Assembly: GCA_035627695.1 (NCBI GenBank) | Contig: DASPLE010000058.1 | Span: 43,423-107,422, forward strand | DNA: 64,000 bases | From: Planctomycetota bacterium | GTDB taxonomy: Bacteria; Planctomycetota; UBA11346 | Reading direction: 5' to 3' | Part shown: positions 3,129 through 60,293 of the stretch, piece by piece | Layout: each line of letters opens with the position of its first letter | How positions within the stretch are numbered: position 1 is the stretch's first letter | Made by a program: the position numbers and the translations under genes | The notes under the pieces: model-generated | Told to the model about the DNA's origin: nothing | Database searches by the model: none | What the model saw: the letters and a program-made list of their open reading frames with translations, nothing else

Positions 3129-5516
3129 TCAGTTGATCCCGGAGACCCCCGCCGCCGCGCCGGCGCCGGCGGCCGCGATCGCGGCGATCACCGCGGCGAT
3201 GCCGCTGGCCTCGGCGTTGAAGCCGTCCTCGTCGGCGCGCATCACCATCCATCCGGCCTCGCGCTCCTCCTCCAGGCGGCGCGACGCCTCCTCCATGCCG
3301 GCGACCTCCTCGTGGGGCAGGCCCGACGCCGCGGCCATCGGCACCGCCAGGTCGATCAGGCGATCGGTGCGCACCAGCAGCCGCGCCATCGCCGGCGCGT
3401 CGCCGGTCGCGACCAGGGACGCCGCGACATCCGGCACCTGCGCGAACGCCGCGCCGTGCACCGCGAACGCCGCCACGCCGGCGGGATTGCTGGTGCACAC
3501 CAGGTGCCCGTCGTGGTAGCCGAGCTGGAACAGGAACAGCATCGCCGGGATGCGCACGATGCCGTCGGCGGGCGCCTGGCCGAGCAGCCCGGCGATCGCG
3601 TCGACCAGCGCGCGCGCGGAGCCGGGCGTCGTCGGCAGCGCCGCGGTCAGCGCCGGCATGGCGCCGACCGGTTCGAGGTAGCCGATCAGCGCGCCATCGA
3701 CCTCGGCCCCGATGCCGCGCACCGCCGCGATCAGCGCGGCCATCGTCCCGCCCTCGTCCTGCGTGGACACCTGCAGCAGCATCCCCTCCAGCAGCGCGCT
3801 GGTGAACACGTCGCTGCCGCGCATCGCCCACGCGCCCGCGAGCAACGCCTCGGGTGGAACGCGCTGCCACACGTCGGCGGCCAGCGTCGGCATGCCCGCC
3901 AGCATGTCGCGCTGCTGCGTCCCCTGCGCGATGCTCGCGGCGGTCATGCGGAACCGTCCCCGATCGATCCAGAACGTGAGGTGGCCAGCCTCAATGATCT
4001 CCTGCGGCGGCACGCCGAGGATGTCCGCATACGCGCGCGGATCATGCGGCCGCATCACCATGCGCATGGTCACGTCGGCGGGGCCCTGCGGAGTGCTCAT
4101 CCAGGCGAGATCGCCGTCGTTCCACGCCGTCCGCATGCGCATCCCGAGCACGCGCGGGCTGGCCGTGAAGGCCAACGAGCAGTCGTCGCCGCTGAGCGAC
4201 ACCGTGCCGTCTTCGCCGGGCGTCGCGGCGAGGCGGTCTGCGATGCGCGCGCGCCAGCGCTCGGCCGCGGCATCATCGCTGAAGCGGGCGACGGCATCGG
4301 CGCGATACGCGGGGAAGCCGCCGAGCGTCGGCGGATGCTTCGGCGTGCCGGGCACCTCGCGACGCTCGAGCAGCGCCTTCCGCTGCTCGCGCATCATCTC
4401 CTGCTGCTTCGCCGGCCCGCCGAGATGCCCCTTCGCGGCGTCCAGCAGGACCGCCTCCATCTCCTCCGGCCTGAACATCGACATCGGATCCATGCGCAGC
4501 TCGATGTCCTCGATCCCGGCGAGTTCGCCCGAGATCGTGTCGACGATCGTCCCCGGCAGCATCGCGCCGATCGGCGAGTCGACGATGCCGCGCCAGGAAT
4601 CCAGCGGCCGGCGCCAACGCACGACGACGCCCACATCGGCGCGCATCGCCTGCGCGACGCGCGCGACGCGCTGGTCCTCGGTCTCGGGCGGCGGGTTCAC
4701 GGGCGGCGCGGCCTCGATCGCGGCCCGCGCCGGTTCGGGGCGATCGGCGGCCGCGCCATGCGTGGCCAGGAACAGGGTGGCGACGCACAGGACGGCGGCG
4801 CCGGCGACGACGATGATCTTCACGATGGGACTCTCTCTGGTCGACCACTGCAGTATCCGCGCCCCCACGACCGCAGCGGTCGTTCCCGCCATGGCGGCGC
4901 GAGGAAGGCGATGGACCCGCGCGACGAGCGCGTCCGGCACCGCGGCGTGCGCCTCGTCGCCGAGCAGGGCGACGAGCCCCGCCAGCGACAGGGTGCAGCC
5001 GCGCGCCGTCAACCGGCGCCGCAGGGCGCCCAGGCCCTGCTGCACGCGCGCCGCCACCGTCGCCTTGGCGCAGCCCTGCTGCTCGGCGACCTCGGCGTAG
5101 CTGTGGCCGGCGAGCTGGCTGAGCAGCACCGCGTCGCGCTCGGGCGCGGGCAGGCTGGCCAGGGCGTCGTCGATCAGCGCGCGCGCCTCGGCGCGTTCCA
5201 GGGCCGACATCTCGGGGCGATCCATCGTCGTCGCCTCCGGCTGCGCCGCGCGTTCCTCCGCGGTGCGCCGGCGCATGCGATCGCGCCGGGCGCGCTGGAT
5301 CACGAATCCAGTCGTGCGGTACAGCCAGCTGGCCAACGCGGGACCCTCGGCCGGAGCCTCGTCCCGTCGTCTCCACAGCACCAGGAACACCGCCTGCACC
5401 GCGTCGTCGACGTCGGCGCCCTTGAGCGACCGCCCGCAGCGGGCGGCGACCAGGGGCGCGTAACGCGCGACGGCATCGGCGAAGGCGGCCTCATCGATCA
5501 CACCGGAGTCGGTCAT
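3129..5516 (-). CDS. ECF-type sigma factor fused to a transmembrane helix and a ~550-aa C-terminal extracytoplasmic domain of unknown function (paralog 1)
   Basis: sigma70 region 2 (DAVQAVFLVLWRRR...ASWLYRTTGF) and region 4 HTH (LSQLAGHSYAEVAEQQGCAKATVAARVQQGL); TM IVKIIVVAGAAVLCVATLFLA; start taken at internal ATG (MTDSGVIDEAAF) matching the paralog. Confidence 0.7.
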   Translation of the reverse strand: MTDSGVIDEAAFADAVARYAPLVAARCGRSLKGADVDDAVQAVFLVLWRRRDEAPAEGPALASWLYRTTGFVIQRARRDRMRRRTAEERAAQPEATTMDRPEMSALERAEARALIDDALASLPAPERDAVLLSQLAGHSYAEVAEQQGCAKATVAARVQQGLGALRRRLTARGCTLSLAGLVALLGDEAHAAVPDALVARVHRLPRAAMAGTTAAVVGARILQWSTRESPIVKIIVVAGAAVLCVATLFLATHGAAADRPEPARAAIEAAPPVNPPPETEDQRVARVAQAMRADVGVVVRWRRPLDSWRGIVDSPIGAMLPGTIVDTISGELAGIEDIELRMDPMSMFRPEEMEAVLLDAAKGHLGGPAKQQEMMREQRKALLERREVPGTPKHPPTLGGFPAYRADAVARFSDDAAAERWRARIADRLAATPGEDGTVSLSGDDCSLAFTASPRVLGMRMRTAWNDGDLAWMSTPQGPADVTMRMVMRPHDPRAYADILGVPPQEIIEAGHLTFWIDRGRFRMTAASIAQGTQQRDMLAGMPTLAADVWQRVPPEALLAGAWAMRGSDVFTSALLEGMLLQVSTQDEGGTMAALIAAVRGIGAEVDGALIGYLEPVGAMPALTAALPTTPGSARALVDAIAGLLGQAPADGIVRIPAMLFLFQLGYHDGHLVCTSNPAGVAAFAVHGAAFAQVPDVAASLVATGDAPAMARLLVRTDRLIDLAVPMAAASGLPHEEVAGMEEASRRLEEEREAGWMVMRADEDGFNAEASGIAAVIAAIAAAGAGAAAGVSGIN

Positions 5517-5622
5517 CGTCTTCCTCGCGCTCCAGTGCCCGGCCGCGATGGCGCGTTCGGCACATTCCGCGGAGCGGTGGCCGGCGCGTCGCCGCGGGGC
5601 GGCCGACCAGGCTGCCAGCGCC

Positions 5623-5628
5623 ATTATA
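5623..5628 (-). promoter_or_regulatory. perfect TATAAT hexamer (minus strand) ~110 nt upstream of ECF paralog 1 start; candidate -10 element
   Basis: AT-only hexamer is very rare in this 72% GC sequence; no convincing -35 found. Confidence 0.25.
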
Positions 5629-12573: not shown

Positions 12574-12676
12574 GCTCGAAGCTCGAAGTTCGAAGCGCGA
12601 GGCTCGAAGCTCGAAGCTCGAAGCTCGAAGCTCGAAGCTCGAAGCTCGAAGCTCGAAGCTCGAAGCTCGAGCTTCG
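12574..12676. repeat. heptanucleotide tandem array (GCTCGAA)n ~14 units, between convergent gene ends
   Basis: direct reading: gctcgaagctcgaagctcgaag...; begins 18 nt after OMP stop and ends 7 nt before LysR-gene stop. Confidence 0.9.
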
Positions 12677-21543: not shown

Positions 21544-21636
21544 GCTTCGCGCTTCGAGCTTCGAGCTTCGAGGTCCGAGCTTCGAGCTTCGAGCTTCGAG
21601 CTTCGAGCTTCGAGCTTCGAGCTTCGAGCCTTCGCG
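21544..21636. repeat. heptanucleotide tandem array (GAGCTTC)n ~12 units between convergent gene ends
   Basis: gcttcgagcttcgagcttcgag...; starts 17 nt after msrA stop, ends ~12 nt before stop of 21648 gene. Confidence 0.9.
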
Positions 21637-26832: not shown

Positions 26833-26863
26833 GCGGTTCACGCGGCATCGCGCGACGAGCGTC

Positions 26864-26978
26864 GGGCTGCGAGCTGCGAGCTGCGGGCTTCGGGCTTCGA
26901 GCTTCGAGCTTCGAGCTTCGAGCTTCGAGCTTCGAGCTTCGGGCTGCGAGCTTCGAGCTTCGAGCTTCGAGCTCGAGC
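26864..26978. repeat. heptanucleotide tandem array (GAGCTTC/GGGCTTC/GAGCTGC)n ~16 units between convergent gene ends
   Basis: gctgcgagctgcgagctgcgggcttcgggcttcgagcttcgag...; fills the gap from AraC stop to stop of 26979 gene. Confidence 0.9.
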
Positions 26979-27797
26979 TCAGGCCGTGCGCTGCGGGACC
27001 GCGTCGTCGCCGAGATCGGCGATGAACGCGATGAAGCCGCCGCTCAGCGCCCACCACGCGAGCGCGAAGACCATCAGCGGACCGCTCACCACCGTCAGCG
27101 CGAACAGTCCCGACGCGAATCCCAGGATCGCGACCGCCGACGCCGCGGCGCCCATGGCCAGCGTGGCGACGAGGACGTTCCACTCGCGCAGCGCGATGAC
27201 GGCGCCGACCGCTCCGCCGACGATCGCGACCATCGAGGCGAACACGACCCCCGCCGGAGACAGGAGGCTCAGCGCGATGGCGGGAAACGCCGCGCCGAAA
27301 GCCGCGGTGAGCGCGATCCGCGCGCAGCGTCGCCGTCGCGCGCACGCGCGGTAGTTGTCGTTGATGGCGCTGAGCCGTCGCGCATGCGCCAGCGCCGCGA
27401 GCAGGTCGTCGGGATCGGTGTCATCCGCCGGCCGGTCGTTGTGCCCGGGCAGCGGCGCTGCGTCCTGGAACGCGTGCATCGGCGCGAGCAGCCAGGCGCG
27501 GGCGAGAGCCAGGGCGCCGACGGCGACCACGGCGACGAGGATGGCCGGCGCATGCATCGGCGCCTTCGCCGACCACGCGACGACACCCACCGCCGCGACG
27601 GCGACAGCGACGGCACCGAGCGCGCCCACGCGCGCCGACACGGCCACCGCCGCGGCGCCGATCAGCGGCCCGCTCCAATGCGCGAGCAGCGCCGGGCCCG
27701 CGCACGCGCCGCCGACCACGACCAGCGCCGTGCTGACGCGCGCGTGCCAGCGCAGGCCACGGGCGTGCTGGCGGTCGACGACCTGCTCCTGGGCCAT
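26979..27797 (-). CDS. polytopic membrane protein, hypothetical
   Basis: 5-6 Ala/Val-rich TM helices; start chosen at internal ATG (MAQEQVV) to avoid overlap. Confidence 0.4.
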   Translation of the reverse strand: MAQEQVVDRQHARGLRWHARVSTALVVVGGACAGPALLAHWSGPLIGAAAVAVSARVGALGAVAVAVAAVGVVAWSAKAPMHAPAILVAVVAVGALALARAWLLAPMHAFQDAAPLPGHNDRPADDTDPDDLLAALAHARRLSAINDNYRACARRRRCARIALTAAFGAAFPAIALSLLSPAGVVFASMVAIVGGAVGAVIALREWNVLVATLAMGAAASAVAILGFASGLFALTVVSGPLMVFALAWWALSGGFIAFIADLGDDAVPQRTA

Positions 27798-27924
27798 GCG
27801 ATGGCGATGCCTGGACTCACGCGCACAGGCGAAGGTCGCGGCGGGATCGCCGGCGGCGGCTGGCGGCGTCGGTTCCATTGCCGCGGTGACGCCGCCGACC
27901 GCTGGACCTGTCGCGAGCGTCGGC

Positions 27925-28173
27925 TCACGCCGTCGCGGGAGCCTTGGCCTCGTTGTTGCGGGCGCTGCGGACATTGATCAGCGCCAGGAACACCTGCAGC
28001 CCGACCAGCGCCCAGGCGCCATCGTGCCAGCCCCACGCCATCCACAGCAGATTGCTGACCAGCATGCTCCAGAAGCCGACCTGACGCTTCCAGCGGATGC
28101 GCGAGCCGATGAACCAGGCGCCGACGATGGTCACGACCATCGCCGGCCACTGCAGGTGATCGATCCAGTCCAT
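27925..28173 (-). CDS. small membrane protein (82 aa), possibly lipid-A-biosynthesis N-terminal (LAB_N)-like
   Basis: two TM helices, Trp-rich (WMAWGW); weak resemblance only. Confidence 0.35.
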   Translation of the reverse strand: MDWIDHLQWPAMVVTIVGAWFIGSRIRWKRQVGFWSMLVSNLLWMAWGWHDGAWALVGLQVFLALINVRSARNNEAKAPATA

Positions 28174-28256
28174 CCGCGGCCATGGTCCACGTCGCCCACG
28201 CGCCGACCACCGCCGATGGTCAGGTCTTGTTCACCGCGCCGTCGCGCCGTCCGCGA

Positions 28257-28814
28257 CTACCGCGGCGCCCGCGCCCGCGCCTTCGCCCGCGCCTTCGCCC
28301 GCGCCTTCGCCCGCGCGCGCTCGCGCAGGAGGCGGCGGTATTCGCGCCCGACCCGGTTCTGCGCGCGCAGGCGCAGCATGGTGCCGCGGCAGCGCGGCGC
28401 GCCGCAGCGGCAGCGGTAGCGCGCCGTCCACACCCGTCGGTAGGGACCATCGATGATCAGGTTGTAGTCGAAGCCCAGCTCATCGCCGGGCGCGATCGGG
28501 CGCAGCGCGACCAGGAACACGCGCTGCCCGCGGATCACCGACTCGCAGTTCGGCGCGCACGAGTGGTTGATGAAGCGCGCGGCGTTGCCGTTGCGCGAGC
28601 CATCGATGACCACGTCCGGCGCGACCTCGAACAGCATGGTGTGGCCGTCGCGGCTGGTCGCCTGGCGCTCGGCCTCGTCGGCCGTCAGGCGTTGGCCGAC
28701 GTACTCGCCGATGCGCCCGCCGGTGCGCACGGCGCGCGTGGCGAAGGCGCCGCGGCCGTGGATCGCCGAGGTGCGGACGACGAACGGCTCGGTCTTTTTC
28801 GCGCGCGGCGCCAT
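28257..28814 (-). CDS. SET-domain protein (lysine methyltransferase fold) with C-terminal basic (KARA)n tail
   Basis: GRGAFATRA...GEYVG, RFINHSCAPNC, GDELGFDY, post-SET CRCGAPRCRG; tail RERARAKARAKARAKARARAPR. Confidence 0.75.
   Translation of the reverse strand: MAPRAKKTEPFVVRTSAIHGRGAFATRAVRTGGRIGEYVGQRLTADEAERQATSRDGHTMLFEVAPDVVIDGSRNGNAARFINHSCAPNCESVIRGQRVFLVALRPIAPGDELGFDYNLIIDGPYRRVWTARYRCRCGAPRCRGTMLRLRAQNRVGREYRRLLRERARAKARAKARAKARARAPR
28270..28322. repeat. 12-nt tandem repeat (GCGCCTTCGCCC)x~4 inside 3' end of SET gene, encoding the KARA tail
   Basis: gcgccttcgcccgcgccttcgcccgcgccttcgccc read directly. Confidence 0.85.
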
Positions 28815-28917
28815 CGGGCTCGGCACGCTGCGCCTCGCGCCGGTCATGACAAGGCCGCGCACGGTTCGGATGCACAGCCGATGCGCCGGACGCGGACCGC
28901 GCCACGATCCACGCATG

Positions 28918-29400
28918 CCGGCCTACGCAGTCCCCGATGCGCAGCTGATCGACGAATGCGACGCGACCAGCTCGTCGACCCACAGCCCCGGTGGCCAGCA
29001 CCGCAACAAGGCGGAATCGGCGGTGCGCCTGCGTCATCGGCCGAGCGGGCTGGTCGCGCAGTGCGAAGCCCATCGCGACCGCTCGGACAACCGCGTCGCG
29101 GCGTTGCGGCGGCTGCGCATCCGCCTCGCGCTGCACGAGCGCGGCGCCGCCGATCCGGCGTGGGTCGCGCGCGGCGACGCGCCACCCGGCCCCGACGACG
29201 ACGGCTACGCGCTGGCGGTCGCGGCGGCGATCGACGCCGTCGCGACCCGGCGCGGCGCGCTGGGCGACGCGGCGCGCGACCTCGGCGTCAGCACCAGCCG
29301 CCTGAGCCGCATCCTGTGCGCCGACAAGGAGGTGCTGCAGGCCGTCAACCGGATCCGCGCGGACAACGACCTCAAGCCGCTCCATCCGGCGCGCGGCTGA
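28918..29400 (+). CDS. hypothetical protein with C-terminal Fis-type HTH
   Basis: C-terminal DAARDLGVSTSRLSRILC...; the track ORF 28567..29400 overlaps the SET gene, so trimmed to internal ATG; weak. Confidence 0.3.
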   Translation, partial: PAYAVPDAQLIDECDATSSSTHSPGGQHRNKAESAVRLRHRPSGLVAQCEAHRDRSDNRVAALRRLRIRLALHERGAADPAWVARGDAPPGPDDDGYALAVAAAIDAVATRRGALGDAARDLGVSTSRLSRILCADKEVLQAVNRIRADNDLKPLHPARG

Positions 29401-33163: not shown

Positions 33164-33165
33164 GC

Positions 33166-33237
33166 GCGAAGCTCGAGGCTCGAGGCTCGAGGCTCGAGCC
33201 TCGAGGCGCGAGGCGCGAAGCGCGAAGCGCGAAGCGC
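33166..33237. repeat. heptanucleotide tandem array (GCTCGAG / GCGCGAA)n ~10 units immediately after heparinase-like gene stop
   Basis: gcgaagctcgaggctcgaggctcgaggctcgagcctcgaggcgcgaggcgcgaagcgcgaagcgcgaagcg. Confidence 0.9.
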
Positions 33238-33238
33238 T

Positions 33239-33454
33239 GCGGGCGCTAGGCGATAGGCGGCAGGACAACCCGCGAAGCCCGCTACGCCCCCTGTCGAGCC
33301 TTGTCTCGACCGATCGCTTGTGGTCGCACGCCGATCGCGACAGTTGCGCCTTCCCGTCGCCTCGGCGACGACTCGATCAATCCGGGCTCCGCGCGTCGTC
33401 ACGACCGTCTGGTGCTCACCGGCTCACCCGCCGGACCCAACGGGACGACCCATG
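33239..33454 (+). promoter_or_regulatory. long (~215 nt) 5' leader of DEAD-box helicase with hairpin GTCGAGccttgtCTCGAC; possible cold-shock-type regulatory UTR
   Basis: inverted repeats read from sequence; DEAD-box/cold-shock genes commonly carry long structured leaders. Confidence 0.3.
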
Positions 33455-34900
<1,446 letters not shown>

Positions 34901-37043: not shown

Positions 37044-37093
37044 CTTCGAGCTTCGGGCTTCGGGCTTCGGGCTTCGAGCTTCGAGCGTCGGGC
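37044..37093. repeat. heptanucleotide tandem array (GAGCTTC/GGGCTTC)n ~7 units between stop of ECF-beta-helix gene and start of beta-helix-lectin gene
   Basis: cttcgagcttcgggcttcgggcttcgggcttcgagcttcgagcg. Confidence 0.9.
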
Positions 37094-37110
37094 TCCACGC
37101 CCGCGCCGCG

Positions 37111-39240
37111 TCACCGCTCGTGCACGATCGTATCGATGCGCCCGGTCGCCTCGTGCCCCAGCGCGCGGAACTCGTCCCAGGTCAACCGACCGAGCCAGTC
37201 CCAGTGCCGCGCATCGCCCGACGCGACGTGGTAGGTGTTGCCGTCGAAGACGACCGCCTCGTAGAAGCGATCGCCGCGCTCCGGTCCACCCGCGCCGGTC
37301 GCGCCGGCGGAGCCGCGGAAGGTGATGTCGTTGCCGCGCACGCGCACGTCCGCGCAGATCCCCTCGCGGTCCTGGATGATGGCGATGCCATTGCCGCCAG
37401 CCGCGCCGACGACCACGCGGTTGCCGGCGATGTCGACGTCGCGCGCGTTGTACCCGGTGATCTGCGCCCCGAACAGCCACTGGTCGTGGCCGACGCCGTT
37501 GTCGATGGCGGTGTTCCCGGCGATCACCACCTCCGAGCTCGCCTTGACCAAGATCCCGCCGGCATTGCCGGTGACGACGTTGCGTTCGCAGCGCACGCCG
37601 GCGCTGTCCGAGTCGACCCACAACCCGCTGCCGCGATTGTCGTGCACCTCGTTCGCGATCAGCCGCAGCCGCCGCGCGCCATCGAGCTTCGCGCCCGCCG
37701 CCCCCCAACGCACGCCGAAGCCGGCGAAACCGTTGTCGGCGATGCGGTTGTCCTCGATCAGCGCGTCCTCGCCGCCGCCGTTGACCCCGCACGCGCCGTT
37801 GCCGTGGACGCGATTGCCGCGCACCACGCAGCGGTCGCCGATGCGGATGCCGGCGAAATGGTTGCCGCGCACGTCGTTGTCCTCGATCAGCCAACCCGTC
37901 GACACCCGCTCGCCGTCGCCGGCCATGATCGCCGCGAGATGCGCCGGCGTCGCGTAGCGCTCGACCACCAGGCCGCGGATCTCGACGCCGTCGACCAGGC
38001 CGCGGAAGGCGTGCGGCGCCACGCTGGTGGCGACCTCGCGCCCCGCCGGATCGTCGGCGATCCAGATCGCGTCCTCGGCGTAGTCGAAGAACCACGCGCC
38101 CGGCCCGAGCGCGTCGCGGCTGGCGACGTGGCGCAGCACCCGGCTATCGAGGAAGCAGTCGTGGCGGAAGGCGCCACGTTCGCGTCCCGGCTCCATCTCG
38201 CCCTGCGCCGACGCCTCCTGGGTCTGGCCGCGGACCACCCAGTGCGCGCCGTCGCGGACGAACCCATCGAGCAGCCGCGCGCCGTCCAGCACCGCGCCGG
38301 GTTCGCCGATGAAGCGGTCGCGCGCCTTCGGCGCCACCGACTGCAGGCGATGGACGCCCGTCGCGATGACGAAGGTCGTCCCGGGCGGATGCGCGTCGAC
38401 CGCCGCCTGCAGGTCGTCGCCGACCGCGATGCGGACGATCCCGTCGCGCTGCGCCAGCCACCACCCGGTCGGTGCCGCCAGAGCGAGGGCGGCGCACGCC
38501 GCCAACGCCATCGCCTTGAGCTTGACGAGGACGAGCGTCCGGCCGGTCGCGTGCGCTGCCGCGACCGCCACCGGCGACGCGCTGCCGGCCGCGCACGTGG
38601 CGACCAGCGCCGGCGGCGCCGCCTGCGCCGTCTGCGCGCCCAGGAAGCCCAGCACGAGCGCCGACGACACCGGCACGCCGCGACGGCGGAACGCCTCGCG
38701 CAGCCGCTCGAGCGCGCGCGTCAGGCGCGTCTGGATGGTGCGCTCGCCGCAGCGCAGGGTCGCGGCGATCTCGGCGCGCGAGAGCCCCTGGAGGTAGCGC
38801 AGGACGACGACCTCGCGCTGCACGCGCGGCAGGCTCGACAAGGCCGCGTCGAGATGCGGCCGCATGAGATCCCAGCGCTCGCCGTCCGCGGCCGCATCGT
38901 CCACCGCGCGCGTCATCGCCGCCTCCCGTTCCCGTCGCCGGCGCCGGGCCTGCTCGCGCCGCACGTCGCGCGCCGCGTATCCGGCGACGCGGAACAGCCA
39001 CGCCGGCAGCACGGTGTCGCGGCCGAGCCCCTCGAGCCGCCGCAGCAGCACCAGGAACGTCGCCTGGGTCGCGTCGTCCGCCCCCTGCGGGTCGCCGAGC
39101 ACGCGCAGGCAGACGCCGTGGACCAGCCCGGCGTGGCGCCGCACGAGCTCGGCGAAGATCGCGTCCGACGGCGCGAGGCGGTACCGGCCCATCAGGTCGG
39201 CGTCGCTGGCCTCGGCGACGGGCACGGGGTCGTCGGTCAT
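37111..39240 (-). CDS. ECF-type sigma factor fused via one TM helix to a periplasmic parallel beta-helix domain homologous to the neighbouring secreted protein
   Basis: sigma region 2 (ATQATFLVLLRRL...AWLFRVAGY) and region 4 (VVVLRYLQGLSRAEIAATLRCGERTIQTRLTRAL); TM LKAMALAACAALALAAPTGWW; beta-helix repeats (IEDNRIADN, GNRVHGN, HDNRGSG...) and shared DAHPPGTTFVIATGVHRLQSV...DRFIGEPGAVLDG block with 34978..36930. Confidence 0.75.
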   Translation of the reverse strand: MTDDPVPVAEASDADLMGRYRLAPSDAIFAELVRRHAGLVHGVCLRVLGDPQGADDATQATFLVLLRRLEGLGRDTVLPAWLFRVAGYAARDVRREQARRRRREREAAMTRAVDDAAADGERWDLMRPHLDAALSSLPRVQREVVVLRYLQGLSRAEIAATLRCGERTIQTRLTRALERLREAFRRRGVPVSSALVLGFLGAQTAQAAPPALVATCAAGSASPVAVAAAHATGRTLVLVKLKAMALAACAALALAAPTGWWLAQRDGIVRIAVGDDLQAAVDAHPPGTTFVIATGVHRLQSVAPKARDRFIGEPGAVLDGARLLDGFVRDGAHWVVRGQTQEASAQGEMEPGRERGAFRHDCFLDSRVLRHVASRDALGPGAWFFDYAEDAIWIADDPAGREVATSVAPHAFRGLVDGVEIRGLVVERYATPAHLAAIMAGDGERVSTGWLIEDNDVRGNHFAGIRIGDRCVVRGNRVHGNGACGVNGGGEDALIEDNRIADNGFAGFGVRWGAAGAKLDGARRLRLIANEVHDNRGSGLWVDSDSAGVRCERNVVTGNAGGILVKASSEVVIAGNTAIDNGVGHDQWLFGAQITGYNARDVDIAGNRVVVGAAGGNGIAIIQDREGICADVRVRGNDITFRGSAGATGAGGPERGDRFYEAVVFDGNTYHVASGDARHWDWLGRLTWDEFRALGHEATGRIDTIVHER

Positions 39241-39416
39241 CCCGGTCGACATACCCCTGATGGCCGCCGCCCGCCAGATGGCGTCAGCGAACCGGCGCCA
39301 TGCCGCCCGGTGGCCCATGCATCACCTGATCCGGCCCGCGGTTGCCATGCGCCGGCCTCCAGCACACTCCGCGCGCCGGCCCGCCGGATCACCACGGTCG
39401 CGTCCAGGAGCGCCCC

Positions 39417-53291: not shown

Positions 53292-56060
53292 TCAGAAGTC
53301 GTCGCCCTCCTGCGGCTGCGCAGCGGCCGGGACGAGGATTTCGAGGGGGAACCCGGTGGTCCTGGCGAGATCGCGCGCCGTGCTGCCGACGTCGCCCGCG
53401 TCGAGGTCGGCGCCGCGCGCCGCCAGCTCCTGCGCGATGTCGGGATTCCCGGTGATGCCGACCGCGAGCTGCAACGCGGTCATCAGCGTACCGGGATCCC
53501 GCGCGCCGATCGGGACGCCGGCCTCGAGGCAACGACGCACGAGCGCCGCGTCGTCGAGCAGCACCGCCGCGGCGAGCAGACCGGGGCCTTCCGCCTCGCG
53601 ACGGGCGTCGTCCGCGAGAGCCGCGGCAGCGCCGGCGGGATCGCCGCCGAGCGCCTGCGCGCGCGCGGTGATCGGCTTGCCGTGACGACGGAAGAGCGCC
53701 ACCACCCCCGCGGCGTTCGGTCCCGGCCCGAGCAGGTCGATCGCGGCCCCGCCCGGCGCGCCATGCCGGGACTCGTCCGCGATCGCGGCGCCGTGCGCGA
53801 GCAGCAGGTCGATGAGCGGCAGGTGCGCGGCGCGGCAGGCGTACCCCAGCGGCGTCGTCCCGTAGCGGTTGACGGGCGATGCCGGGGCGCCGCGCTCGAG
53901 CAGCAGCTTGGCCGCGGCGAGCGCGTGGTTGTCGATGGCGCGGTACAGCGCCGTGCCGCCGGTGGCGTCGACGGCGTCGATGCGCACGCGCGGATCGTCG
54001 AGGAGCGCGGCGATCGCGCGGCAGCGATCCCCCACCGCCGCGACCGCCAAGGGGCTCAGCCTCGAGCCCGGGAACGGTTCGGTCGGGTCGTCGCCGGCGG
54101 CGAGGCGACGGCGCACCGCGTCGGCATCGTCGTCGCGGATCGCCGACCACAGGTCGTCGCCAGGCCGCGCATCGGGGCGGAGCACGAGGACCTGCGGCAG
54201 ATAGACATCGCTGGTCTGCGCCGAGATCACCAGCCGCCACTGGCCCTGGTGCCGCTGCGGCGCGACGGCATGGAGCCGCCCATCGACCCACACGGCGCAG
54301 GTCGTGCCGTCGGCGAGCAGGCGCAGTTCGATCGCGCCGTCGTCCGGCCGCAGCGACGGGACCTGCGCCCCGGTGCCATCCAGGACGCACTGGGCCCCGC
54401 CGTTGTGCAGCAGCCAGCCGACGTGGTCGCCGGGGCTCGCGCCGCCGCCGACCGGCTCGAGCGCGACCATCACCCGCGCATACGGCCGCGCCAGGCCGGG
54501 CAGCGCCGTGAATGCGTCGCCGCGGATCGAGACCGCGATCGGCCCGGTGAGCGGCTCCGAGCGCAGGCTGACGCCGTCGCCGTTCCAGATGTGCGCGCTG
54601 CCGCTGGCGAGCGACTCGCCGAGATCGGGGTCCTCGAACGCCGCCGCGATGCTCGACCAGTCCGCGGGCCAACTCGGCGGTTCGGCATCCGCAAGGCCGG
54701 CCGGCAGCCGCCCGAGCGACATCGCGAGGCCCTCGCTCAGCACGCGCGCGCGTTCGATGGCGCCGCGCGCGCGCAGCGCCGCGTGGAGCGCGGCATCGGC
54801 GAACCAGCGATCGCCCCGACCAGCCGGCACATCGGCGTGCCATGCCGCGCAGGCGTCGTCGCGCCCCGCCGCCGACGCGCAGGCGGTGCCGAGCATGGCC
54901 AGCGCTACCCGCGGACAGCCGGCGTCGATCGCCCGATCCAGCGCGGCGAGCGCGGCCTCCGGTCGATCGAGCCAGGTCGCCGAGGCCTCCGCCACGGCGT
55001 CATCCCACGCGCCGGGTGGCACGCCGACGCGCGGATCCCAGGCATAGGCGCCGTTCAGCGATGCCGGCGGAAATGGTCCGCAACGCCGCGCCACCGCGGC
55101 TGCGTCGAGCAGGTCGAGGACCATCGGCCCGCCGAACGCGTCGCCCGCCGCGTCGGACCAGCCGAAGTGCCCGATCGGCCGGCCGTTGATCGCGGTCAGG
55201 ACGCGCGAGGCACCGACCGCGCGACGCATGTCGATGGCCGACGCCTCGACGTGGCGCAGCACCAGCGACCAGCCATGGGAGGCGTCCAATCCCGGGACGG
55301 GAGCGGGGGCGGGCGGCTCGTCGGCGACGACCGCCGTCGGCGTGGGCGCGTGACGCGGCCGCGCGGTCCACAGCGCCAGCGCGGCTACAAGCGCCGAGGC
55401 CAGGAGGATCAGCGGCAGCACCGGGATCGCCCAGGCGATCGGGGCGGCGCGCGCGACGAGCGCGACCCGACCCAGCACATCGACCATCGGCGCCGGCAGC
55501 GCCGCCGCGGGAAGCTGCTCGAAGAGCGCCGCCGGCGCCGCGCCGAGCGCGACGCCCCGGCGATCCAGGGCGGCGCGCATGCGCGCGAGCCCCTCGGCGA
55601 GCCGGCGGCTGACCGTCGCCTGGCTGATGGCGAGGCCCGCGGCGATCGCGTCCTGGCTCTGGCCGGCGAGGAAACGCGCGACCAGGACCGCGCGCAGGTC
55701 GACGTCGAGCTCGGCGAGCGCCTCGTCCAGGTGCGCGAGATCCGCGCGTTGCGCCTGCAGCGCCGGGACGTCGTCCGGCAACGCCGTGGTCAGCGGCCGC
55801 CGGGCGATGATGCGCGCGGCGCAGCGGCGGGCGACGGTGTGCAGCCACGCCGGCACGCGCTCGCGCACGCGGTTCGCGCCGCGCGCGAGTTCGAGGAAGG
55901 CGTCCTGGCAGGCCTCGTCGGCCTCCGCCGCGCGGCCGGTGACGCGCAGGCACAGGCCGTAGACCCAGCTGCCATGGCGCTCGACCAGCGCGGCGAACGC
56001 CTGCTGGTCGGCGCGACGGCGGAAGGCGTCGAGCAGGTCGAGGTCGGTCGGCGTGGCCAT
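53292..56060 (-). CDS. ECF-type sigma factor fused to TM, large extracytoplasmic region and C-terminal ankyrin repeats
   Basis: sigma regions 2/4 (ACQDAFLELARG...AWLHTVARR; LVARFLAGQSQDAIAAGLAISQATVSRRLAEGL); TM; ANK repeats GGTALYRAIDNHALAAAKLLLERGA...YGTTPLGYACRAAHLPLIDLLLAHGAA. Confidence 0.7.
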   Translation of the reverse strand: MATPTDLDLLDAFRRRADQQAFAALVERHGSWVYGLCLRVTGRAAEADEACQDAFLELARGANRVRERVPAWLHTVARRCAARIIARRPLTTALPDDVPALQAQRADLAHLDEALAELDVDLRAVLVARFLAGQSQDAIAAGLAISQATVSRRLAEGLARMRAALDRRGVALGAAPAALFEQLPAAALPAPMVDVLGRVALVARAAPIAWAIPVLPLILLASALVAALALWTARPRHAPTPTAVVADEPPAPAPVPGLDASHGWSLVLRHVEASAIDMRRAVGASRVLTAINGRPIGHFGWSDAAGDAFGGPMVLDLLDAAAVARRCGPFPPASLNGAYAWDPRVGVPPGAWDDAVAEASATWLDRPEAALAALDRAIDAGCPRVALAMLGTACASAAGRDDACAAWHADVPAGRGDRWFADAALHAALRARGAIERARVLSEGLAMSLGRLPAGLADAEPPSWPADWSSIAAAFEDPDLGESLASGSAHIWNGDGVSLRSEPLTGPIAVSIRGDAFTALPGLARPYARVMVALEPVGGGASPGDHVGWLLHNGGAQCVLDGTGAQVPSLRPDDGAIELRLLADGTTCAVWVDGRLHAVAPQRHQGQWRLVISAQTSDVYLPQVLVLRPDARPGDDLWSAIRDDDADAVRRRLAAGDDPTEPFPGSRLSPLAVAAVGDRCRAIAALLDDPRVRIDAVDATGGTALYRAIDNHALAAAKLLLERGAPASPVNRYGTTPLGYACRAAHLPLIDLLLAHGAAIADESRHGAPGGAAIDLLGPGPNAAGVVALFRRHGKPITARAQALGGDPAGAAAALADDARREAEGPGLLAAAVLLDDAALVRRCLEAGVPIGARDPGTLMTALQLAVGITGNPDIAQELAARGADLDAGDVGSTARDLARTTGFPLEILVPAAAQPQEGDDF

Positions 56061-56248
56061 CGTGGTCTCCACAGCGTGGTGGGCTCCTCGGGCGCCGCCC
56101 ATTCAATGTTTCCGCGTCCGGTCTGGCACCCGGCTCGTCCCGGGCGTGCCGACGACGGACGCCACCGCCGCGCAGCGGACGTGGCGCCGCGAGGCCCCGC
56201 CTCGCGCCTTGAGTCCCGGGCGCGGCGGACGACCGTGCGCGTCCGCAT

Positions 56249-59665: not shown

Positions 59666-59930
59666 TCGGCGGCGCCAACCTCTTCGCGGCCACGGACCTG
59701 GCAGGGCCAGGCGCCGGACCTGATCGCGCGTCGCACGTCGGCTCCGTCGTCCATGCGAGCACGAGGATTCGGTTTCTTCCGAGCCCGGCGCCCGTATGGT
59801 TCGCCCGGCGCCGCGTGTCGTGTCGCCTCTCCGGCGCCGAATGGCGCCTCTCTACCAGCGCCACGATGCCATTCCGGCGTCCGCAGCGTTTCTCTCGGCG
59901 CCCTCGCGGTGCCATCGTAAGGCTCAGTCT
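59666..59930 (+). promoter_or_regulatory. long structured leader upstream of RRM gene (several GGCGCC-based hairpins)
   Basis: ggcgccgaatggcgcc and gcccggcgcc...cgcccggcgcc inverted repeats; typical of cold-induced rbp leaders. Confidence 0.3.
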
Positions 59931-60293
59931 ATGGAACTCTTCGTCGGCAACCTTCCTTGGTCCATGTCGGATCAGGAACTGCAGGACCTCTTCTCCACGC
60001 ACGGCACGGTCGAGCGCGCCAAGATCGTCACCGATCGCGACACCGGTCGCAGCCGCGGCTTCGGCTTCGTCACGATGACCGACGACGCCCAGGGCCAGGC
60101 GGCCATCAAGGCCCTCAACGGGTCGCAGTCCGGCGGTCGTCCGATGACCGTCCGCCAGTCCGAGCCCCGCGGTGAGCGCACCGGCGGCGCCGGCGGCGGC
60201 GGCGGTGGCCGTGGAGGCGATCGCGGCGGCGATCGCGGTGGTTACGGCGGCGGCGGCGGCGGCGGATACGGCGGCGGCGGCAATCGTCGCTGA
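59931..60293 (+). CDS. glycine-rich RNA-binding protein (single RRM)
   Basis: RNP2 LFVGNL, RNP1 RGFGFVTM, Gly/Arg tail. Confidence 0.85.
   Translation: MELFVGNLPWSMSDQELQDLFSTHGTVERAKIVTDRDTGRSRGFGFVTMTDDAQGQAAIKALNGSQSGGRPMTVRQSEPRGERTGGAGGGGGGRGGDRGGDRGGYGGGGGGGYGGGGNRR

Follow-up and report, generated by a model that had tools for sequence, protein, structure and literature searches.

The SET-domain gene and its product

The stretch analysed here comprises 64,000 nucleotides (nt) of contig DASPLE010000058.1 (assembly GCA_035627695.1, positions 43,423 to 107,422) and is referred to as the window. Its host is an environmental Planctomycetota bacterium known from a metagenome-assembled genome. 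The window contains a gene for a small protein with a SET domain, a post-SET cysteine cluster and a strongly basic C-terminal tail, part of which is encoded by a short tandem repeat (Table 1). This SET protein, and the tail in particular, is the subject of the present analysis.

Table 1. Positions of the SET gene, its parts, its neighbours and other features of the window
Feature	Position	Strand	Basis or remark
SET-domain protein, coding sequence	28257..28814	-	185 residues, ATG start, stop codon included; open reading frame list, Pfam SET, GC at third codon position 0.93, homologue N-termini aligned
SET catalytic domain, residues 20-118	28461..28757	-	Pfam envelope 20-118; residue-level alignment to MLL1 SET domain
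Post-SET Cys cluster C135-x-C137-x4-C142	28389..28412	-	aligned to MLL1 CNCGAKKC
Clade-specific C-terminal extension, residues 148-166, RLRAQNRVGREYRRLLRER	28317..28373	-	start of predicted long helix
Perfect 12-nt tandem repeat, 3.75 copies, encoding ARAKARAKARAKARA (residues 167-181)	28272..28316	-	Tandem Repeats Finder, 100% match
22-residue tail of the original prediction, R164-R185, RERARAKARAKARAKARARAPR	28260..28325	-	translation
Divergent intergenic region, 100 bp, common to SET and RF-1-domain genes	28815..28914		gene coordinates; presumed promoter region
161-residue GGQ/RF-1-domain "peptide chain release factor-like protein", HYE05220.1	28915..29400	+	Pfam RF-1 E=3.5e-14; divergent neighbour
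82-residue hydrophobic protein, HYE05218.1	27925-28173	-	no Pfam family
331-residue Ala-rich membrane-like open reading frame	26979-27974	-	no Pfam family; overlaps the preceding gene
DEAD-box helicase	33320-34900	+	15/18-nt repeats at 34660-34734
RRM protein	59796-60293	+	(CGG)n repeats at 60182-60281
Proteins with N-terminal ECF-type sigma-70 domain (three)	3129-5624; 37111-39318; 53292-56102	-	long C-terminal extension
Intergenic heptamer arrays (five)	12574-12670; 21544-21634; 26856-26979; 33164-33237; 37044-37094		each just beyond a gene end

The open reading frame (ORF) has GC contents of 0.70, 0.60 and 0.93 at its three codon positions, like real genes in this 73% GC window; by the same measure, overlapping plus-strand ORFs were dismissed as antisense artefacts. 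Translation likely begins at the ATG at 28814 or at a GTG at 28826, which has GAGG 6 nt upstream and would give 189 residues. The gene caller chose the equivalent GTG in the near-identical homologue P0001. The start of the longest ORF, at 28916, is unlikely because it abuts the start of the divergent RF-1-domain gene. Exact look-up of the 185-, 189-, 196- and 219-residue versions returned no match in the protein collection, and a promoter scan of the intergenic region returned no sigma-70-like site. The N-terminus, MAPRAKKTEPFVV, when read directly, lacks a hydrophobic signal-like stretch, and the enzyme is therefore expected to be cytoplasmic.

Every SET hallmark quoted in the original prediction, made from the DNA sequence without database searches, is present in the translation together with the post-SET cluster: G20-R-G22, E37-Y38-V-G40, R80-FINHSCAPNC-90, E112-LGFDY-117 and C135-RCGAPRC-142. 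The full Pfam SET model (PF00856, positions 1-105) is covered with E=1e-21 and 77.8 bits, against a cutoff of 22.4, and no other Pfam domain was found in the 185 residues. C86 of the NHSC motif, along with C135, C137 and C142, makes up the four zinc ligands that define the post-SET zinc-cluster subclass (SET1/MLL, SUV39, SET2/NSD type). The best matches in the PDB, by phmmer, are the SET and post-SET modules of MLL1, MLL2 and yeast and human SET1 (best E=7e-22), to which the GRG, EYxG, NHSC, (F/Y)DY and CxCx4C motifs align residue by residue. The AlphaFold (AF2) model, built from 121 sequences, has a mean predicted local distance difference test (pLDDT) score of 89.5. Foldseek matched this model to MLL1 chains with E=2e-12, probability 1.00, a template modelling (TM) score of 0.71, a root-mean-square deviation of about 3 A and 37% identity over about 146 columns. 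Given this overall fold match, the predicted structure can be assigned to the SET beta-fold with confidence.

The key residues are strongly conserved. In two alignments, one of 121 close homologues and the other of 150 more distant ones, N83, C86 and E112 are invariant, and G20, G22, Y38, H84 and Y117 are at least 90% conserved. G40, S85 and D116 are likewise either invariant or conserved in no fewer than 90% of homologues; the post-SET cysteines are invariant in alignment A2 and at least 90% conserved in alignment A4. Comparison with three relatives (79-84% protein identity) gave a core dN/dS of 0.15-0.25, indicating purifying selection, and none of the five close relatives found has an interrupted ORF. 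The original prediction had named two findings that would count against it, poorly conserved residues in NHS and ELxFDY and a disrupted ORF in relatives; neither was encountered. The residues for S-adenosylmethionine (SAM), the lysine channel and zinc are intact, the fold is predicted to be that of a SET domain and the core is under purifying selection, all of which supports the prediction of a SAM-dependent lysine methyltransferase. The window protein is very probably a functional SET lysine methyltransferase.

The product of the enzyme may differ between clades. In the motif ELx[F/Y]DY (residues 114-117 of the window protein are encoded at 28461-28472), the switch residue is Phe in the window protein and its nearest relatives and Tyr in at least 90% of the family; the close relative P0004 carries Tyr at this position. 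Under the established Phe/Tyr-switch rule of SET enzymes, Phe makes the lysine channel roomier and favours di- or trimethylation. Because Phe occupies the switch, the window protein is predicted, by analogy, to favour di- or trimethylation, and the distribution of Phe and Tyr suggests a clade-level change in methylation multiplicity.

The basic tail and its tandem repeat

The 38 residues past the post-SET zinc cluster carry a net charge of +15 and consist of two parts, a helical segment conserved in the clade and a hypervariable polybasic segment of low complexity. The first is conserved as RLRxQNRxGxxYxRLL in P0001-P0007 only. Residues 157-182 are modelled by AF2 as one long helix, with pLDDT of 92-95. 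The last 22 residues had been described as encoded by a 12-nt repeat. The tail is indeed repeat-encoded, but the perfect repeat accounts for only 15 of the 22 residues. Tandem Repeats Finder reports a period of 12, 3.8 copies and 100% matches, with the unit CGCCCGCGCCTT, which on the coding strand is AAGGCGCGGGCG and reads K-A-R-A. The array is embedded in a looser stretch of 6-nt periodicity at 28265-28320. The window has only four perfect tandem arrays that reach 40 nt, the 12-nt repeat and three intergenic heptamer arrays, whereas none arose in 60 first-order Markov simulations of the window; the 12-nt repeat is thus not due to chance. A role as structured RNA or terminator was considered for the repeat and rejected, since an Rfam search over the whole window gave 0 matches, a search of the coding strand past the SET gene found no terminator and the inverted repeats in the region are unremarkable.

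The length of the repeat had been suggested to vary, and a case of such variation was found. A 1,140-nt metagenomic contig from a separate assembly (L083; ENA ERZ27252495) aligns to window positions 28108-29259 with 0 mismatches over 1,152 aligned positions and a single gap, which lies inside the array and corresponds to one 12-nt unit fewer in the contig. Judging by its name (k141_), the contig seems to have been assembled with a k-mer that exceeds the 33-45-nt array in length, which makes collapse of the repeat by the assembler unlikely; proof would need reads. One repeat unit is the sole difference between two otherwise identical sequences, which fits slipped-strand mutation that outpaces point mutation.

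Over longer distances, the tail changes rapidly. Among relatives, tail dN is 3-8 times core dN, and the site of the KARA repeat is occupied by (AK)n, (KP)n or (SK)n, by an unrelated basic stretch or by almost no tail. This raises the possibility that (KARA)n is functionless, a neutral by-product of slippage in a GC-rich 3' end (GCG, CGG and AAG codons) that is tolerated as a disordered appendix. What matters would then be the SET core and perhaps the RLRxQNR segment, and nothing else. Consistent with this possibility are the high tail dN, the difference in copy number between otherwise identical sequences, the near absence of a tail in some family members and the lack of conservation of the repeat part even among the relatives at 79-84% protein identity. 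Two RNA-binding proteins of the window, the DEAD-box helicase and the RRM protein, also have low-complexity tails encoded by repeats; that of the RRM protein is GGGRGGDRGGDRGGYGGG.

Polybasic tails across the family

The original prediction regarded a SET methyltransferase as unusual in free-living bacteria, a view that does not hold. Among 8,000 scored candidates, 957 match the window protein at E<=1e-5, and relatives occur in at least 516 GTDB species-representative genomes. An exhaustive HMMER scan of 1.84 billion representatives of protein clusters defined at 50% identity recovered 13,809 clusters at E<=1e-3; a threshold of E<=1e-10 leaves 3,611 of them, and one of E<=1e-30 leaves 85. The family spans Gemmatimonadota, Beta- and Gammaproteobacteria, Myxococcota and other phyla, and many of the species are free-living in soil and water. 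The best among the matches listed are from Gemmatimonadaceae, Burkholderiales (Caballeronia, Comamonas, Hydrogenophaga, Achromobacter), Lysobacterales, Steroidobacteraceae and Archangium/Cystobacter, and the matches listed also include single relatives from Chloroflexota, Binatia and Acidobacteriota. Databases, including that of NCBI, routinely name such homologues "SET domain-containing protein-lysine N-methyltransferase", and SET genes of free-living and environmental bacteria have been discussed in print (PMC3980110). The gene is one more member of an already-named and common bacterial family, and its repeat tail is one version of a variable family tail.

Nor is a basic tail special to the window protein; a polybasic C-terminus is the norm. 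Operationally, the family consists of proteins of about 150-230 residues with the motif CxCGxxxCRGT(M/I)L followed by a basic tail, and the window protein conforms, with CRCGAPRCRGTML preceding its +15 tail. The tail has a net charge of at least +3 in 97 of 121 homologues, in which its length has a median of 16 residues and a range of 3-71 and its composition is 22% K, 20% R, 15% A, 8% P and 7% S. The same pattern is seen at 72 loci of GTDB species representatives with 51-73% GC. Among 145 representatives of clusters at 50% identity, 99 have a tail charge of at least +3 and 65 have tails of at least 20 residues. A limited literature search found no description of the family-wide polybasic tail, of its lysine enrichment or of the 12-nt copy-number polymorphism.

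The amino acid composition of these tails is not what base composition would produce. Within the same proteins, K/(K+R) is 0.57 for tails and 0.21 for SET cores (Wilcoxon p=1e-16). Tails rich in Lys are still found where genomic GC is above 70%, and the correlation between GC and K/(K+R) is weak (rho -0.28). High GC alone is therefore insufficient to explain the tails, and GC bias as their sole cause was rejected. The same data bear on neutral slippage. Positive charge is kept in about 70-80% of the family across phyla and over the range of 51-73% GC, and lysine is enriched against the compositional trend, whereas drift would be expected to yield mixed or Ala/Gly/Pro-rich tails rather than consistently basic ones. 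Neutral slippage is plausible for the exact KARA sequence. It leaves the charge and lysine enrichment of the family unexplained, and it is unlikely that the repeat is functionless.

Many tails of the family resemble histone H1, and some are long AKKA/PAKK arrays. Examples are KKAAVKKAAVKKTASKKTPAKK, KKTAKKATKKAVKK, which extends to 134 residues with a net charge of +63, and KKAKAPAKKAGKAK. The Pfam HC2 model (PF07382), which describes the chlamydial H1-like nucleoprotein Hc2, matches the tails of 3 of 149 family representatives, at best with E=2.8e-9 and 37.8 bits against a cutoff of 40, and one representative is fused to a ribbon-helix-helix (RHH) DNA-binding domain. These matches and the RHH fusion make the idea of a nucleic-acid tether, raised in the original prediction, a reasonable one on sequence grounds.

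Other C-terminal modules replace the basic tail in one protein each, namely RHH_1/RelB-like (P0172), Hc2-like (P0198), ureidoglycolate lyase (P0180), PqqD (P0190) and peptidase C39 (P0268) modules. The assignment is direct for P0198 and was made from tail sequences for the other four. Some of these modules may be artefacts of gene fusion or gene calling.

Gene neighbourhood and other features of the window

An RF-1-domain gene for a protein of 161-162 residues is divergent from the SET gene, at a distance of about 60-100 bp, in the window and in all five close-relative loci long enough to include it (L081, L082 and L085-L087). This arrangement, together with the basic tail, would fit a methyltransferase of the translation apparatus that acts on a ribosomal protein or translation factor, binds rRNA through its tail and is linked to the RF-1-domain protein. 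Ribosomal proteins and EF-Tu are the best-known lysine-methylated proteins of bacteria, and yeast Rkm1-4 methylate ribosomal proteins. However, the adjacency was found at 2 of 82 loci, both in the close clade, and at 0 of 80 diverse GTDB loci, a pattern that indicates inherited synteny and shared ancestry. A functional link between the two genes was therefore rejected as family-level evidence. No translation gene is a conserved neighbour across the family, and methylation of the GGQ motif occurs on glutamine and is carried out by PrmC, which is not SET chemistry. A role in translation is very unlikely. The C-terminal half of the RF-1-domain protein does not have a basic tail of the ArfB type and appears helix-turn-helix-like by eye.

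When the ORFs found within 4 kb on either side of SET at 82 loci were clustered all against all, no neighbour proved common to the whole family, and gene context thus indicates no substrate. Two neighbours whose products act on nucleic acids recur within lineages. In 12 Burkholderiales loci (L049 and 11 others) the SET gene is preceded, about 200 bp upstream, by that for DNA topoisomerase III, and in 7 Gemmatimonadota loci (L053 and 6 others) a DEAD-box helicase gene is divergent from the SET gene, at a distance of about 70 bp. Both were rejected as partners because shared ancestry explains the pattern as synteny within each lineage. Downstream of the SET gene in the window are the genes for the hydrophobic and membrane-like proteins listed in Table 1. 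Gene content just 3' of the SET stop varies among close relatives: L081 has PhyH and AraC genes there, and L085 has other small ORFs. This points to rearrangement at this position.

The window as a whole looks like ordinary chromosome. It encodes pyrB/pyrI, a transketolase-like enzyme, Dps, msrA, a Ser/Thr kinase, several fusions to extracytoplasmic function (ECF) sigma factors, an AraC regulator and a heparinase-like protein, and no sign of a mobile element or secretion system was seen within the 64 kb. Proteins identical to NCBI entries HYE05198.1, HYE05206.1, HYE05218.1 and HYE05220.1 are encoded in it. The three ECF-sigma fusions are large proteins; the extension contains a right-handed beta-helix/NosD region in one and ankyrin repeats in another. 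The five heptamer arrays have related units, GCTCGAA or its reverse complement TTCGAGC in 13-18 copies, GCGCGAG/GCTCGAG in 10.6 copies and CTTCGGG in 7.3 copies, and the unit includes the palindromes TCGA and AGCT. The heptamer repeat was sought in 87 loci of relatives and was found in none. Terminator-like elements and genome-specific repeat elements are both possibilities for these arrays.

Comparison with known SET enzymes and basic tails

The closest solved structures are those of the eukaryotic SET1/MLL (KMT2) enzymes, which have 36-37% identity to the window protein over about 145 residues and share with it the GxG, EYxG, NHSC, YDY and CxCx4C motifs. KMT2 enzymes are proteins of several thousand residues that require WRAD partners and end a few residues past the post-SET cluster, whereas the window protein is a stand-alone enzyme of 185 residues with a basic tail and a Phe switch. 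With no other Pfam domain, it lacks the large multidomain architecture of KMT2 enzymes, which carry an N-SET/WIN motif and work in the WRAD/COMPASS complex, and was not placed in that group; it resembles the catalytic core only.

The window protein is in the same broad family as the small bacterial SET enzymes BtSET and LegAS4 (Burkholderia, Bordetella, Legionella), the likeness to BtSET being drawn from its description. In its presumed mode of action, its nearest counterparts are small bacterial SET enzymes such as BtSET and NUE. The SET and post-SET core is common to this group. Homologues with about 50% identity to the window protein are found in Burkholderiaceae (Caballeronia, Trinickia) and Alcaligenaceae (Achromobacter, Paralcaligenes), and these too are small and have basic C-termini that range from short to long. 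The best NCBIfam match is LegAS4/AnkI (NF043024), with 43 bits against an equivalog cutoff of 550 and only over the SET region (profile positions 32-140 of 439). The window protein lacks the ankyrin repeats of LegAS4 and is not its equivalog. Its clade also differs from BtSET and LegAS4 in the Phe switch and the RLRxQNRxGxxY extension, and its host is an environmental planctomycete with no sign of secretion.

Characterised bacterial SET proteins have mostly been described as secreted histone methyltransferases with basic patches that resemble a nuclear localisation signal (NLS). BtSET is reported to methylate H3K4 and goes to the nucleolus, with no NLS defined. In Chlamydia NUE, removal of the C-terminal KHRKKR patch lowers chromatin and nuclear enrichment as well as enzyme activity (PMC2904774). 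The +15 tail of the window protein is likewise an NLS-like basic patch outside the SET domain, analogous to KHRKKR, and in a eukaryotic cell it would act as a nuclear or nucleolar localisation signal. One alternative casts the protein as a nucleomodulin, an effector secreted to act on a eukaryotic host or predator in the manner of NUE, BtSET, RomA and BaSET; its tail would then be the localisation signal, as has been proposed for NUE, LegAS4 and BtSET. The evidence makes this very unlikely. The gene is in a housekeeping chromosomal context of an environmental planctomycete, the window contains no secretion system, the protein has no signal-like N-terminus and its match to LegAS4/AnkI is far below the cutoff. 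Moreover, the same family of tailed proteins is present in hundreds of free-living species (Gemmatimonadaceae, Comamonas, Hydrogenophaga, Archangium, Steroidobacteraceae).

NUE and cpnSET are, by description, bacterial SET enzymes with a C-terminal basic patch (KHRKKR at position 206 of about 219 residues). NUE is type III secreted by an obligate intracellular pathogen and its six-residue patch is not repeat-encoded, whereas the window protein has a 38-residue tail, a 12-nt repeat and a free-living host. NUE automethylates K209 and K210 in KHRKKR, and mutation of these residues lowers its activity on histones (PMC2904774). By this precedent, the tail lysines of the window protein could be a substrate of the enzyme itself, as automethylation sites or as a pseudo-substrate. 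The tail would then regulate either enzyme activity or its own binding, and the number of repeats would set the number of sites; such a role is compatible with a tether. The ARAK repeats resemble the N-terminal ARTK of H3, which SET1/MLL-type enzymes methylate, and the closest solved homologues are H3K4 enzymes, as BtSET is reported to be. The lysine enrichment of the tails, even above 70% GC, is also what a lysine methyltransferase substrate would need. However, ARxK spacing is confined to the window protein and P0001, with (AK)n, (KP)n, (SK)n or no repeat in the next relatives. The window tail contains three lysines only, and a Lys-rich composition is equally typical of DNA-binding tails. 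Automethylation is quite unlikely to be what the tail is for.

Precedents for an endogenous substrate come from other SET enzymes. cpnSET methylates the H1-like nucleoid proteins Hc1 and Hc2. Go1-SET of Methanosarcina mazei, a prokaryotic stand-alone SET enzyme, methylates the DNA-associated protein MC1-alpha and is, by description, the best precedent for an internal "chromatin" role. Go1-SET is archaeal, and the published accounts consulted mention no basic tail.

For the tail itself, basic low-complexity sequences that resemble H1 are known from Bordetella BpH1 and from the C-terminus of mycobacterial HupB. Chlamydial Hc2 and Pseudomonas AlgP are repetitive polyanion binders rich in Ala, Lys, Arg and Pro, whereas the window tail is short and Arg-rich. 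The likeness of this tail to H1 or HU, proposed in the original prediction, stands as one of composition only and does not extend to homology.

A proposed tethered lysine methyltransferase

The reading best supported by these observations, to which we assign a probability of roughly 0.6, is that the window protein is a small SAM-dependent enzyme of the cytoplasm that methylates protein lysines and whose fast-evolving basic tail, varied by slippage, tethers it to a polyanion. With SAM as the methyl donor, the enzyme would modify lysines on at least one basic protein. The tail would hold the enzyme electrostatically on the polyanion and thereby near its basic-protein substrate, and (KARA)n would grow and shrink by replication slippage of the 12-nt repeat, so that tail length is tuned. 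Because a charged, Lys-enriched tail is kept across most of the family, electrostatic tethering is the most likely role of the tail. Taken separately, the chance that the window tail is a polyanion tether is about even. The candidate polyanions are nucleoid DNA, RNA or ribosomes, and polyphosphate. Nucleoid DNA leads because relatives have H1- or Hc2-like tails and the RHH fusion. Polyphosphate is possible because the H1-like AlgP associates with polyphosphate granules (PMC9239181).

Several observations weigh against this reading. A confident AlphaFold helix is a common default for Ala/Arg/Lys repeats, and the modelled helix is uninformative on binding. The tail of the window protein is dominated by Arg (3 K, 14 R), unlike the Lys-rich norm of the family. 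Its last 51 residues gave no phmmer match in the PDB at E<=10, and the window protein gave no match to Pfam HC2 at E<=0.1. A minority of the family has very short or acidic tails (GEEEE, GEDE, APED), so the tail, although usual, is not strictly required for function. The 82 loci revealed no conserved operon partner that points to a nucleoid or ribosomal substrate. In addition, the rule that links Phe or Tyr to the product state derives from eukaryotic enzymes.

Beyond the gene itself, the analysis makes small but definite additions, namely the family-wide polybasic tail, its lysine enrichment and the 12-nt copy-number polymorphism. We tentatively offer a broader proposal, itself doubtful, in which the polybasic, Lys-enriched and often H1-like tails are an ancestral, selected feature that docks the family on the nucleoid or another polyanion and may itself be methylated. 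Under this proposal, free-living bacteria would widely use methylated lysines on nucleoid-associated proteins as an endogenous "chromatin mark". The nuclear or nucleolar targeting reported for effectors such as NUE and BtSET would follow from the ancestral tail and not from an NLS evolved for the purpose, and in the lineage of the window 12-nt slippage would tune tail length at the level of strains. The tails also call for caution, as the nuclear localisation of ectopically expressed bacterial SET proteins may merely reflect the presence of such a tail. Finally, the tails provide a handle on the role of SET enzymes in bacteria that have no contact with a eukaryotic nucleus.

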